Assembly (NCBI GenBank): GCA_964624735.1
Contig: CAZUXN010000003.1
Span: forward strand, 1-42,696
Direction of reading: 5' to 3'
From: Candidatus Woesearchaeota archaeon
GTDB lineage: Archaea > Nanobdellota > Nanobdellia > Pacearchaeales > GW2011-AR1
DNA: 42,696 nucleotides
Below are positions 1 to 42,696 of the stretch, in pieces (positions within the stretch are counted from its first letter, which is position 1; each line of letters starts with the position of its first letter). The position numbers were made by a program, and so were the translations under genes. The notes beneath the pieces were generated by a model. The model searched no databases and was not told the DNA's origin. It worked only from the letters and a program-made list of their open reading frames with translations.

Positions 1-593
1 TGCCGACGACGGGGCTTGTGAGTTGGTGGAAGTTTGATGGTGATGCGACGGATAGTTGGGGGGATAATGATGGTACGCTGATGGGGGATGCGAATACCGA
101 TGGGAACGTTTTGAATTTGGATGGGGATGGGGATTGGGTGAATTGTGGTGATATTTTAAGGTTTGAAACTGGAGATTTTAGTGTTGCTTTTTGGGTAAAA
201 TATACTTCTGGAACATGGGCGTTTATAACTAAAGGATGGGCAGCTCATGCACTCAATGGTTGGGGTATTTGGCGGAGTGGTGGAGATTCGATTAGTGTTG
301 CTTTACAAGATATATCTGCTTCGGCTTCTTTCCCTATGGTAGATACATGGGCTTTTGTTGTTGTTACTTTTGACCGTGATGATTTTGGGAAGATTTATAT
401 TGATAGTGTTTTGGGAAATAGTTTTGATATTTCTAGCAGACAGACAATTATTGGTACTACAGACTTGTTATTTATTGGTAGGTATGGAACGGTTTCAGAA
501 TTGAAAGGGATATTTGATAATGTGATGATTTATGATAAAGTTCTTTCCGATGATGAAGTGAAGGCGATTTATGAGATTCAGGGGAAGAGTTAG
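1..593 (+). CDS. LamG / concanavalin-A-like lectin domain, C-terminal end of a larger surface protein (5' partial)
   Basis: The frame stays open back to nt 3, so the GTG at 18 is probably internal. WKFDGDATDSWGDNDGTL..GDFSVAFWVK..TWAFVVVTFD..KIYIDS..FIGR..FDNVMIYDKVLSDDEV follows the LamG-type jelly-roll pattern. Confidence 0.7.
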   Translation, partial: PTTGLVSWWKFDGDATDSWGDNDGTLMGDANTDGNVLNLDGDGDWVNCGDILRFETGDFSVAFWVKYTSGTWAFITKGWAAHALNGWGIWRSGGDSISVALQDISASASFPMVDTWAFVVVTFDRDDFGKIYIDSVLGNSFDISSRQTIIGTTDLLFIGRYGTVSELKGIFDNVMIYDKVLSDDEVKAIYEIQGKS

Positions 594-606
594 AGTGGGA
601 AGTAAA

Positions 607-614
607 TTTATAAA
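607..614 (+). promoter_or_regulatory. TATA box TTTATAAA
   Basis: Ends 22 nt before ATG 636. The same box and spacing recur before many genes in this window. Confidence 0.6.
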
Positions 615-635
615 GTAGGTAGTTGTTTTATTGTT

Positions 636-1100
636 ATGAAAGAGGTTGTGAGGAGGTATTTTGGTTGGAAATGGTTTTTGGTTCTTGGGATTTTGGTTGT
701 TTTTATTGGGGGTGGTTGGTTTTTGTTTTTTAGTTATGCGGAGTGTGATAGTTGGGATTGTTTTAATAAAAATTTGAAAGATTGTAGTAAGGTGAAATTT
801 GTTGGGGGGACAGATATGATTTTTGGATACACGATTAAAGGAGTTTCTGATGAGGGGTGTGAGGTTGATGTTGAGCTTTTGCAAGGAGAATTGAATAATC
901 AAGATTCGATTAAGCTGGAACGTCAGAAGATGACTTGTGTTTTGCCGAGGGGTGTTGTGATGATTCCAGAGAGTAATATTGGGAATTGTCATGGATTGTT
1001 GAAAGAGGGTTTGCAGGATTTGGTGATAAAGAAGTTGCATACTTACATTGTTCAGAATCTTGGGCAGATTAATTTGGAGATACTTGAGGTTCCGAGTTAG
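636..1100 (+). CDS. hypothetical membrane-anchored Cys-containing protein
   Basis: 154-aa ORF with an N-terminal hydrophobic anchor (WFLVLGILVVFIGGGWFLFF), 6 Cys in the ectodomain, and a TATA box at the canonical distance. Confidence 0.6.
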   Translation: MKEVVRRYFGWKWFLVLGILVVFIGGGWFLFFSYAECDSWDCFNKNLKDCSKVKFVGGTDMIFGYTIKGVSDEGCEVDVELLQGELNNQDSIKLERQKMTCVLPRGVVMIPESNIGNCHGLLKEGLQDLVIKKLHTYIVQNLGQINLEILEVPS

Positions 1101-1102
1101 GG

Positions 1103-1372
1103 TTATAATTCGAATTCATTGATGAAGCTGATTATCGTTTTGTATTTTTCCAGGAATTGATGTCCTTTGTCGGTGAGAGATGTAGTTTTGTTTTCTTTGT
1201 GGCTGATTTCTTTTATGAGATTTTTGTTTAATAATTCGAAATAATATTCTTTGAATCTTGTGGACGATATATTTGATTGTCTTATTAGCGGAGTTATTTT
1301 TATGGAGTTGCGATTTTCATGAATTATTGAGAGTATGTCTTTTATTATTTCTAATTTTCCTCTTTTTGTCAT
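1103..1372 (-). CDS. winged-helix DNA-binding protein (archaeal HTH_45-like)
   Basis: MTKRGKLEIIKDILSII..IKITPLIRQSNISSTRFKEYYFELLNKNLI..LTDKGHQFLEKY fits the small archaeal wHTH regulator pattern. The ORF extends to 1414, but Met15 (1372) abuts the upstream gene stop. Confidence 0.6.
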   Translation of the reverse strand: MTKRGKLEIIKDILSIIHENRNSIKITPLIRQSNISSTRFKEYYFELLNKNLIKEISHKENKTTSLTDKGHQFLEKYKTIISFINEFEL

Positions 1373-1373
1373 T

Positions 1374-41245: not shown

Positions 41246-41278
41246 CGACATAGTTGCTACGCCGTTCGCTATTCGCTT
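41242..41278 (+). repeat. intergenic hairpin GTAGC-N9-GCTAC (41242-41260) followed by 2x TTCGCTA/TTCGCTT (41265-41278)
   Basis: Same hairpin-then-7-mer order as the coding inserts. It spans the stop codon of the platform gene. Confidence 0.7.
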
Positions 41279-41343
41279 CTTGATTTTGTGGCGATGTGTT
41301 TAGTCTGCGAAAGTTAATAAAGAATGAGTTGTTGAATGTTAAG

Positions 41344-41709
41344 ATGGTGAGGAATTTTAAGGAGTTGAGTGTTTGGAAGGATGCGATGGATTTAGTAGAG
41401 GAAATTTATGGAGTGATTGTGGGATTTCCCCAAGAAGAGATTTATTCTTTAAGCCAGCAATTGAAGAAGGCGGTTGTTAGTATTGTTTCTAATATTGCAG
41501 AAGGTTGTGGACGAAGGACCGATAAAGATTTTATTTCATTTTTATATAATGCTTTGGGAAGTGTTAAAGAGGTTGAGTGTCAATTGATAGTTGCTAAAAG
41601 ATTAGGTTATTTAAGTGATGGGGATTTTGAGAAGTTAGATAATGAGGTAGACAAGTTGGGGAGGATGTTGGTGAAATTTATTAAATGTGTGGGTGAAAAT
41701 GAAACTTGA
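41344..41709 (+). CDS. four-helix-bundle protein (23S rRNA intervening-sequence protein / Avd-like family)
   Basis: FKELSVWKDAMDLVEEIY..FPQEEIYSLSQQLKKAVVSIVSNIAEGCGRRTDKDFISFLYNALGSVKEVECQL is the family signature. The start is at Met17 of the ORF. Confidence 0.85.
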   Translation: MVRNFKELSVWKDAMDLVEEIYGVIVGFPQEEIYSLSQQLKKAVVSIVSNIAEGCGRRTDKDFISFLYNALGSVKEVECQLIVAKRLGYLSDGDFEKLDNEVDKLGRMLVKFIKCVGENET

Positions 41710-42523
41710 GAAGGTGCATTGGTTTGGAATTGTAGTGGGGATTTTGGTAGGCGGGGGTTCGTTGGTTATATTTATGGGAAGTCGGTTGTCGTATTTTTTA
41801 CTTGTTGTTGCATTGTTGATTGTGGCGTTTCCTTTTGCTATTAGTTTTCTTATTGGGCAGAGTCGACAGAAAGAGAAGGAGGAAAAGTTTTTGGAGTTTG
41901 CGCGGGACTTGGTTGAGAATGTGCGTTCGGGGACGCCGATTAGTAGGAGTATTGTTAATTTGAAGGGGCGGAATTATGGGACACTGAGCCCACATGTTGA
42001 TAAGTTGGCGAATCAGTTGTCGATGGGGATTGTTTTGACGAATGCTTTTGGAGTTTTTGCAAGAGAGACGAAGAGTCGTGTAATTGCGAGGGCTGTTGGT
42101 TTAATTAGCGAGGCTGAGAGGGCAGGAGGGAAGATAGATACGATTTTGGATTCGGTAGCGCGTTCTGTTAATCAGATTGAGCAGTTGAGAGAAGAGAGGA
42201 AGGCGGCGGTTTCAAATTTAGTTACTCAGGGTTATTTGATTTTTTTGGTGTTTATTGTTATTATGTTGATTTTGGAGTTTAAGATTTTGCCGTTGGTTTC
42301 TGATTTGCAAGGGGGTGGTGGGTTGAGTGTTGGTGTTGTTAATTTGAATTCGGACCAGTTTTCGATGCCTTTGTTTGTGATGCTTTTGGTTCAGTCCTTT
42401 TTTGCGGGGCTTGTTATCGGGAAGATTTCTGAGGGGACTGTTAAGGCGGGGTTTAAGCATTCATTTATTTTGATTGCTTTGACTTTGCTGGTGACGACGG
42501 GGGCGAAGGTTTTGTTTGGGTAG
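41699..42523 (+). CDS. type II secretion F-domain platform protein (TadB/FlaJ-like)
   Basis: N-terminal TM pair, T2SSF-type block FARDLVENVRSGTPISRSI..LSMGIVLTNAF..EAERAGGKIDTIL, then C-terminal TMs. The ORF track starts at GTG 41687, and ATG 41699 overlaps the upstream stop by 11 nt. Confidence 0.75.
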   Translation: MKLEKVHWFGIVVGILVGGGSLVIFMGSRLSYFLLVVALLIVAFPFAISFLIGQSRQKEKEEKFLEFARDLVENVRSGTPISRSIVNLKGRNYGTLSPHVDKLANQLSMGIVLTNAFGVFARETKSRVIARAVGLISEAERAGGKIDTILDSVARSVNQIEQLREERKAAVSNLVTQGYLIFLVFIVIMLILEFKILPLVSDLQGGGGLSVGVVNLNSDQFSMPLFVMLLVQSFFAGLVIGKISEGTVKAGFKHSFILIALTLLVTTGAKVLFG

Positions 42524-42542
42524 GATAATTAGATATGCTTCG

Positions 42543-42626
42543 CTTGTGGATACGGAAAATCTTTGATTTTCTTTGTGGGATACGCCTTCGACTTGTAGAT
42601 ATGGGGCAGAACCCCTTGTAGATATG
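42543..42626 (+). repeat. four dispersed copies of the 12-nt motif CTTGTRGATAYG
   Basis: CTTGTGGATACG at 42543-42554, TTGTGGGATACG at 42573-42584, CTTGTAGATATG at 42592-42603 and at 42615-42626, in the intergenic region after the platform genes. Confidence 0.8.
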
Positions 42627-42696
42627 TTTTTGGTTTATGTTGTGTTGGCGAATGTTTTAAATAGTTTGGTTTGGTTTGATATTTATGAAAAGAGGG

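Follow-up and report, generated by a model that had tools for sequence, protein, structure and literature searches.

Strand-locked mutation pressure and an extreme G+T excess in a Pacearchaeota-type archaeon

What makes one strand of an archaeal chromosome rich in G and T, no matter which way its genes are read? The question is raised by contig CAZUXN010000003.1, 42,696 nucleotides long and analysed in its entirety (hereafter, the window), which is contig C3 of a metagenome-assembled DPANN genome of 575,744 bp in 35 contigs. The host is a tiny salt-marsh archaeon of the Pacearchaeota type. Its genome is called G000 here, and its relatives are numbered in the same way. Our analysis shows a strong and still active mutation pressure that follows one chromosomal strand, whatever the direction of the genes. 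C→T and A→G changes are far more frequent on the G/T-rich strand than on its complement. Purifying selection restrains the bias at codon positions 1 and 2, and cancels it in tRNA genes. The explanation that we consider rather likely as a whole combines this pressure with deamination of exposed leading-strand sequence and with replication forks that cross nearly the whole chromosome in one direction.

The G/T-rich strand of the window

The plus strand of the window consists of 0.232 A, 0.115 C, 0.276 G and 0.377 T (G+T = 0.653), with a GC skew, (G-C)/(G+C), of +0.413 and a corresponding AT skew of -0.239. Typical prokaryotic GC skews are roughly 0.05-0.2. The GC skew is above zero (0.13-0.61), and the AT skew below it, in each of 41 sliding 2-kb windows. 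Among 711 lines of 60 nucleotides, G exceeds C in 654 and T exceeds A in 569. An initial annotation of this DNA had proposed a window-wide G+T excess, regardless of coding strand, after counting three such lines by hand. The counts are exact (10021-10080, A13 C6 G18 T23; 15181-15240, A10 C8 G16 T26; 32221-32280, A12 C9 G18 T21), and the excess is stronger than was stated there.

Genes were called by a greedy choice of the longest open reading frame (ORF), and sites were then sorted into four-fold degenerate sites, intergenic DNA and the three codon positions. Four-fold sites of plus-strand genes have a GC skew of +0.73 and an AT skew of -0.54 on the coding strand. The corresponding values for minus-strand genes are -0.73 and +0.71 which, once converted to the plus strand, have the same polarity. 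Intergenic DNA of the window has a GC skew of +0.45 and an AT skew of -0.17 on the plus strand. Across site classes the skew is largest at codon position 3 and at four-fold sites, followed by intergenic DNA, position 1 and position 2. Rather than being lost at third positions or between genes, it peaks at the former and persists in the latter. The five gene names given in the initial annotation (SMC, ABCE1, ArgRS, IleRS and Acs) are all upheld by Pfam matches. The features of the window used below are as follows.

1..42696, plus strand: G/T-rich chromosomal strand of a single polarity contig-wide (skew in 2-kb windows, four-fold sites and intergenic DNA)
9977..12841, minus strand: SMC gene with an A/C-rich coding strand, site of the first tally (Pfam SMC_N, E = 3e-55)
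14402..14607, minus strand: tRNA-Leu and tRNA-Thr genes, which escape the skew (ARAGORN, Rfam)
14893..16686, plus strand: ABCE1 gene with a G/T-rich coding strand, site of the second tally (Pfam ABC_tran, Fer4_RLI, Fer4)
16941-18647, plus strand: ArgRS gene (Pfam)
18137..18171, plus strand: heptamer array (GTCGGAA)x5, oriented as the skew (Tandem Repeats Finder)
19538-22441, minus strand: IleRS gene (Pfam)
31343..33271, minus strand: Acs (acetyl-CoA synthetase) gene with an A/C-rich coding strand, site of the third tally (Pfam AMP-binding, ACAS_N)
34282..34364, minus strand: tRNA-Ser gene, which escapes the skew (ARAGORN, Rfam)
36407..39729, plus strand: three genes including a T2SSE-type ATPase (38200-39729), with inverted orthologues in the relative G024 (third-position G+T)

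Mutation pressure bound to one chromosome strand

The skew extends over the genome of the host. The absolute GC skew is 0.26-0.53 in 34 of the 35 contigs, with a sign that reflects only the arbitrary orientation of each contig, and genome-wide intergenic GC skew is +0.39. The third-position G+T content of genes is bimodal genome-wide, with G-rich-strand genes at 0.80, the others at 0.23 and nearly no overlap between them. The four-fold GC skew is +0.77 for G-rich-strand genes and, on the coding strand, -0.69 for other-strand genes; the AT skew goes down to -0.58 at four-fold sites. Read on the G-rich strand, the four-fold sites of both gene orientations have genome-wide frequencies of 0.44-0.48 for T, 0.33-0.40 for G, 0.12-0.13 for A and 0.05-0.06 for C. 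These give a T/C ratio of about 8 and a G/A ratio of about 3 in both gene classes. With a transitions-only equilibrium model, in which the asymmetry is estimated as (T x G)/(C x A) at four-fold sites, the combined strand-versus-strand asymmetry of C>T and A>G is approximately 20-40 fold, compared with 1.1-1.8 in the congener G012.

In order to map the skew in relatives we used loci anchored on ABCE1, with orthologues drawn from metagenome-assembled genomes of unrelated projects that carry the names Pacearchaeota, Woesearchaeota or Nanoarchaeota. The four-fold-site skew was split into a strand term and a gene-direction term. The five closest relatives, all from independent studies, have strand terms of 0.67-0.83 and gene-direction terms close to zero. 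Further relatives have strand terms of 0.45-0.5 or about 0.3, and those of other families and of Micrarchaeota are about zero. Within the single GTDB genus the skew is graded, from none (G010) through weak (G012, 400 kb, GC skew 0.07) to extreme (G000, G005, G015, G019 and G024). The anchor gene has a peculiarity of its own. The ABCE1 match is broken between query residues 39 and 62 in G002, G004, G007, G010 and G011 (loci L017, L019, L020, L022 and L023), which would indicate that the part between the N-terminal Fe-S segments has been replaced, or has received an insertion, in a lineage-specific manner.

Two classes of gene are informative about the nature of the bias. The sense strand of tRNA genes is the G-rich strand in 16 cases and the C-rich strand in 20, with similar sense-strand GC skews of +0.11 and +0.08. 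Inverted protein-coding genes behave quite differently. The strand class is kept in 297 of 304 orthologue pairs between G000 and G005, while comparisons with G024 supply 62 strand-discordant cases (31 from G000 and 31 from G005) at 55-83% protein identity, in which the third positions are fully inverted. For example, the three genes at 36407-39729 have a third-position G+T of 0.81-0.88, and their opposite-strand orthologues at G024:C1:225-228 kb have 0.28-0.30, at 62-79% protein identity. The complete flip of inverted orthologues means that DNA takes on the polarity of its new surroundings when it switches strand; polarity is a property of the place on the chromosome. Taken together, the spared tRNA genes and the flipped orthologues therefore identify an ongoing, strand-locked mutation pressure, and neither selection nor an artefact. 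An unusually asymmetric mutation or repair regime had been proposed in the initial annotation, and it is borne out by the peak at four-fold and intergenic sites, the tRNA genes free of skew, the re-equilibrated inverted genes and the near-zero gene-direction term.

The pressure is nearly blind to sequence context. T/(C+T) is 0.78-0.95 whatever the neighbouring bases are, and because the neighbours barely matter a motif-specific deaminase or a methylation-linked process is improbable. Amino-acid replacements relative to the weakly skewed G012 are themselves polarized. In G-rich-strand genes I>V outnumbers the reverse by 678:230 and K>R by 350:144, and in other-strand genes V>I does so by 361:164 and I>T by 104:47. 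Contigs assembled from public runs reveal an almost clonal population, with about 15 isolated differences in 20 kb, too few for a mutation spectrum and impossible to polarize.

We also observed islands of lower GC content and weak or reversed skew in G024, at C1:40-50, 80-85, 295-315 and 345-365 kb and at C2:230-320 kb. Some are inverted native segments that have re-equilibrated to a varied extent and others have no homologue in G000 or G005. They look like recent arrivals or recent inversions in which the rewriting is incomplete. The skew could act as a clock for the residence time of DNA.

Could selection keep one strand rich in G and T instead, for the sake of structure-forming G-rich DNA, mRNA properties or protein composition? 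Proteins do differ in composition by strand, and G-rich arrays recur on a single strand. However, the skew peaks at four-fold sites, extends to intergenic DNA and is lowest at the second codon position. It is also indifferent to gene direction, so the mRNAs of the two gene classes are opposite in composition; furthermore, it is missing from tRNA genes and it flips in inverted genes. We regard selection as very improbable and close to refuted. A technical origin, through strand-specific damage or conversion of a bisulfite-like C to T kind, or through assembly or binning error, deserves practically no credence. Chemical conversion would likewise give a loss of C and a gain of T on one strand, yet A is also scarce relative to G, and a bisulfite-type conversion would leave A untouched. 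Long uninterrupted ORFs with clear Pfam domains are found on either strand, and the tRNA genes are normal. An artefact is excluded because the window was re-assembled independently, at approximately 100% identity, in four other salt-marsh runs and because relatives from unrelated studies have the skew, in graded strength.

As a result of the strand-locked G/T bias, genes on opposite strands use opposite codons and encode different amino acids. Proteins from the G/T-rich strand are enriched in V (2.5x), G and C (both 1.8x), W (1.45x) and R (1.3x), and depleted in T and Q (both 0.5x) and in P, H, I, N and K (0.6-0.76x). An amino-acid split by strand had been noticed by eye. It stands for G, V, W and R against K, N, T, Q, P and I, but does not extend to F (1.08) and L (0.90), which are unchanged between strands. 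In the inverted orthologues, whose usage the initial annotation suggested comparing, the ratios are 1.52x for V and 0.69x for T. The many long shadow ORFs described there are real; for example, plus-strand ORFs at 10251-10790 and 11154-11717 lie opposite smc. Stops number 3.9 per 100 codons on the A/C-rich strand and 5.7 on the opposite one.

Repeat arrays share the polarity of the skew, as had also been claimed. There are about 20 heptamer arrays of 4-5 copies, mostly intragenic, between 6640 and 40214 of the window, with the TCG-core, G/T-rich form on the plus strand in every case and the complement in none. Examples are found at 15014-15040, 16089-16120, 18137-18171, 18356-18387, 23637-23670 and 40180-40214, with units such as GTCGCTG, GGTCGCC, TCGCAAG, GTCGGAA and TCGGAAG. 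In public runs the contig depth is 40-190x over the array at 18137-18171, compared with about 6x elsewhere, so this heptamer unit is common to many loci. The skew supplies a context for these strand-polarized arrays.

Two further features of the window are recorded here. A perfect tandem duplication of 51 bp (2.1 copies, 100% match) lies at 36870-36977, in the intergenic region between two plus-strand genes. The Rfam model of the bacterial small signal recognition particle (SRP) RNA matches 35046-35132 on the plus strand with 45.6 bits (gathering score 40). This is probably the conserved core of an archaeal SRP RNA that has been caught by the shorter model.

Replication polarity, repair genes and mechanism

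A bias that is bound to a chromosome strand directs attention to replication. Each genome examined has a single orc1/cdc6 gene, located at G000:C4:25758-26987 in the host. A candidate origin lies approximately 130-350 bp upstream of it, at G000:C4:~25,400-25,630, where two inverted elements that resemble origin recognition boxes (ORBs) flank a (TA)-rich stretch of 126-162 bp with 80-89% A+T. Between G000, G005 and G024 the upstream element (CTTTCCATAAGAAAYCATAGGGTCACAC, on the reverse strand) hardly differs. Conservation of the downstream element is far lower, above all in G024.

The initial annotation had suggested looking for a skew switch point beside orc/cdc6; there is none, neither at the sole orc1/cdc6 gene nor at the ORB-like origin. 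In G000 the GC skew keeps its positive sign from 25 kb upstream of orc1 to 15 kb downstream. In G005:C5 it is uniform across 181 kb, with orc1 at 60 kb, and no switch occurs at orc1 in G024:C1 either, where one polarity continues throughout 396 kb. G005:C5 joins the starts of G024:C1 and C2, giving one polarity over about 658 kb (~71%) of the 930-kb G024 assembly. When G005 contigs are chained through those of G000 and G024, one polarity accounts for 472-612 kb out of 674 kb. A member of another family, G034, has only a weak strand term on its 620-kb contig, and that term keeps one sign in 20 of 20 sampled blocks and is unchanged at orc1. The proposal that the window lies within one replichore stands as far as no 2-kb window flips sign, but it was an understatement given the uniformity of 34 of the 35 contigs and the missing switch at orc1/cdc6. 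The G-rich strand carries 66% of the genes (384/572 without contig C2, 405/615 in all), and is the sense strand of the rRNA genes in G000:C14 and G024:C2. As the polarity is unswitched at the orc1 origin and unbroken over most of the chromosome, the forks are probably unidirectional. From these draft assemblies we infer unidirectional or very asymmetric replication.

Three places where the polarity does change were considered as switch points. One is a full-strength switch, the only such switch seen, in G005:C3 at ~29.8 kb, between convergent genes. The two segments that meet there are joined otherwise in G000:C1 and C18, where the polarity is uniform, and a low-GC (0.29-0.35) insert of about 6 kb (G005:C3:28,500-34,400, loci L192 and L193) sits exactly at the switch. 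It could be an inversion, perhaps mediated by a mobile element, or else a mis-join or assembly chimera; a conserved terminus is unsupported. Another is G024:C2, which past 230 kb turns into a mosaic whose skew is weak or opposite. An origin at ~230 kb is likewise unsupported, the DNA beyond consisting of native genes of both polarities and of weakly skewed genes. Since both coincide with synteny breakpoints, we interpret them as rearrangements. The last, an oppositely skewed stretch at G000:C2:1-2.4 kb, was rejected as an origin-type switch, being a lone non-conserved gene at a contig end with flanks that hold one polarity in G005. The gene itself (G000:C2:2-2101, minus strand) is cut off by the contig end and has a strand composition opposite to that of the remaining contig. 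Its product, secreted or at the surface, has over 700 residues with an abundance of Cys, Asn and Asp. The gene adjoins an intron-containing tRNA-Ile gene, and in G005 it has only a local match of 42 residues in a different place.

Several losses of replication or repair genes can be ruled out as causes. A loss of UDG is ruled out, since G000 and 22 of 24 congeners carry the gene and several unskewed families lack it. PolD and PolB are present everywhere, with PolB exonuclease motifs I-III and motif C intact, so that neither polymerase has been lost. A fused PriS-PriL ORF throughout rules out a loss of primase; the PriL Pfam matches score close to threshold and drop out in the genus, probably owing to sequence divergence. 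A loss of NucS or MutS is not specific, as NucS is absent from the whole order and MutS also from unskewed families. G000 has neither. Bona fide MutS (~290 bits) is found in three congeners only (G006:C4:40727-41287, G017:C7:42720-43280 and G021:C3:14665-15228) and in 0 of 16 genomes of other families. Of the carriers G006 and G017 look weakly skewed, and the one 2.9-kb locus of G021 looks strongly skewed. This pattern suggests that mismatch repair was acquired or retained in one subclade.

Other differences do set the genus apart. Endonuclease V is found in 0 of its 25 genomes, compared with 11 of 16 in other families. The PolB of the genus carries Y37N, V93A and R119K in the uracil pocket, where outgroups keep Y, an aliphatic residue and R; the pocket, with its residues as listed in PMC2241895, senses template uracil and hypoxanthine. 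Its motif A reads SMHAS (DFTSMHAS) where outgroups have SLYPS (DFRSLYPS) or SFYPN, a change of the steric-gate Tyr to His. The PolB of G000 (G000:C1:25591-28080, locus L251) additionally has a unique insert of 18 residues, rich in G, R and C (SGCRGVGRRGKCGVVGSG), after the Exo I motif. Judged from sequence, the absence of endonuclease V and the PolB changes would fit a weakened handling of deaminated bases, or else an error-prone polymerase.

The explanation that we prefer would work as follows. The G/T-rich strand would most likely be the leading-strand sequence, that is, the parental strand which is single-stranded while it serves as the lagging-strand template. On this exposed strand uracil (from deaminated C) and hypoxanthine (from deaminated A) may be copied ahead of repair. 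The lack of endonuclease V and the substitutions in the deaminated-base pocket of PolB may let such lesions through. Forks would cross nearly the whole chromosome one way, by unidirectional theta replication, by a strand-displacement (rolling-circle-like) mode or with extremely unequal replichores.

A number of observations weigh against this explanation. UDG is present, and the differences in repair and polymerase genes are genus-wide, including the weakly skewed G010 and G012, while a family without endonuclease V (f3) is yet unskewed. These differences therefore cannot alone set the strength of the skew, and the endonuclease V and PolB features would be at most permissive. Base composition alone cannot tell deamination from polymerase misincorporation. 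Over 300 kb of G024:C1 from orc1, islands aside, the four-fold skew of plus-strand genes stays level (0.69-0.85), which means no gradient with distance, although the skew may be saturated. The origin, too, is a putative one, recognized by the resemblance of its elements to the ORB consensus and of its layout to that of archaeal origins. Genes just to its left point away from it, as at a bidirectional origin. None of the strongly skewed genomes is closed, the figure of 71% rests on one junction from another species' contig, and switch points could lie in assembly gaps. The full-strength switch in G005:C3 and the mosaic part of G024:C2 could also be real termini.

The last of these points lead to the possibility of ordinary bidirectional replication of extreme magnitude, with switches hidden in gaps or rearranged regions and with an orc1-adjacent region that is not an active origin. 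The assemblies are indeed fragmented (35, 8 and 10 contigs), the change in G005:C3 is a clean one of the terminus type between convergent genes, G024:C2 shifts in character at ~230 kb, and genes diverge about the orc1 intergenic region. Some archaea fire origins that do not adjoin orc1. However, the uniform arrangement of the same segments in G000, the single polarity of over half of the G024 assembly and of the chained G005 contigs, and the 620-kb contig of G034 without a sign change all argue against it. The opposite-sign part of G024:C2 is weak and mosaic, unlike a stable replichore under such pressure. We judge bidirectional replication to be distinctly unlikely. A different account retains the strand asymmetry and dispenses with deamination. 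If PolB and PolD work on different strands, and one of them makes G:dT and T:dG mispairs at a high rate, these could be fixed without mismatch repair, and the strand that it synthesizes would become rich in G and T. In its favour are the lack of NucS and MutS in G000 and most of the order, the confinement of MutS to three congeners of which two look weakly skewed, and the lost steric-gate Tyr of motif A. Motif A changes such as L612M in yeast Pol delta and M644G in Pol epsilon are strand-specific mutators. Moreover, two G:T-wobble transitions without a context effect suit misincorporation as well as deamination. Against it, the weakly skewed or unskewed G010 and G012 also carry the motif A change, the exonuclease motifs and motif C of PolB are intact, other families without NucS or MutS have no skew, MutS-bearing G021 looks strongly skewed at its one sampled locus, and the assignment of polymerases to strands is an assumption. 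This is a serious contender, though we place it on the unlikely side.

Unidirectional forks and deamination remain the combination that we favour. Its fullest form is that this Pacearchaeota-type clade copies essentially the whole chromosome one way from a canonical Orc1-type origin, and that an exposed strand and polymerases tolerant of deaminated bases drive silent sites to a mitochondrion-like G/T saturation. We put this forward only tentatively, as a possibility to which we give somewhat less than even credence.

Implications and comparison with known systems

The results raise the ceiling for strand bias, with silent sites of one strand at about 5% C and 12% A, and they show a proteome that falls into two compositional dialects by gene orientation alone. 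There are practical consequences. Phylogenies built from such proteins are prone to strand-dependent compositional attraction. Binning by codon usage or tetranucleotides sees two 'genomes', gene callers meet long shadow ORFs, and the usual GC-skew check of assemblies is inapplicable. The graded strength of the skew among congeners offers a way to identify the genes that determine it; candidates are endonuclease V, the deaminated-base pocket and motif A of PolB, and MutS. If the polarity is truly uniform, the assumption that Orc1-type origins fire bidirectionally is challenged. This would be the first archaeal chromosome known with a single replication polarity, and a natural experiment in which the codon and amino-acid usage of a gene is rewritten once the gene is inverted. 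It would also give DPANN archaea a replication mode parallel to one proposed for candidate phyla radiation (CPR) bacteria, pointing to convergence in ultra-small symbionts. Our literature search found no paper that ties Pacearchaeota to GC skew.

Replication-linked strand bias is usually subtle, and it is weak or undetectable in most archaea. The classical, Lobry-type asymmetry of bacteria and some Euryarchaeota, with G>C and T>A on the leading strand, resembles the present case in several ways. G and T are jointly enriched, gene direction is irrelevant, silent sites are the most skewed, and the G-rich strand is the sense strand of the rRNA genes and of the majority of all genes. Unlike the classical case, the asymmetry is far larger here (whole-sequence GC skew of 0.41, four-fold ~0.75). 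In addition the sign does not switch at the orc1-linked origin nor within almost any contig of these draft assemblies. Chen et al. (2020, PMC7111523) found peaked bidirectional skew in 18 of 224 RefSeq archaea, all of them Euryarchaeota, and in one DPANN genome (Forterrea).

The nearest published case is found in CPR bacteria. Kadnikov et al. (2020, PMC7143001) described a G/C disparity along the whole chromosome in the order UBA1400 (Ch65, Collierbacteria, Beckwithbacteria). One strand of a closed chromosome has 29.8% C and 15.0% G, a skew of about 0.33, with a near-linear cumulative skew for which the division of genes between strands does not account, and unidirectional replication was proposed (PMC7143001). 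These too are uncultured, symbiont-type organisms with tiny genomes. However, they have a bacterial DnaA/Pol III system, where our archaeon has Orc1, MCM, PolB and PolD. UBA1400 shows no AT disparity, whereas the AT skew here is -0.24 and goes to -0.58 at four-fold sites. Its rRNA genes lie on the C-rich strand, and ours on the G-rich strand. The skew is stronger here, though the genome there is closed and ours are drafts.

In strength there are counterparts among organelle genomes. The H strand of animal mitochondrial DNA is rich in G and T through C>T and A>G changes on a strand that is left single-stranded, and it has a skew gradient. The same pair of transitions affects the same strand here, the asymmetry is of comparable strength, and codon and amino-acid usage are similarly inverted between gene classes. 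The differences lie in the kind and size of the DNA, a cellular chromosome of 0.6-0.9 Mb as against an organelle genome of 15-20 kb, in the unrelated replication machinery, and in that no gradient with distance from the origin is seen. The mitochondrial genome of Galdieria sulphuraria has a GC skew of 0.74, for which unidirectional or rolling-circle replication has been invoked (PMC4316638). Its AT skew is positive, a purine excess, where we find a keto (G+T) excess. In summary, the kind of feature is classical, its strength is organelle-like, and its missing switch breaks a defining trait of the classical pattern.

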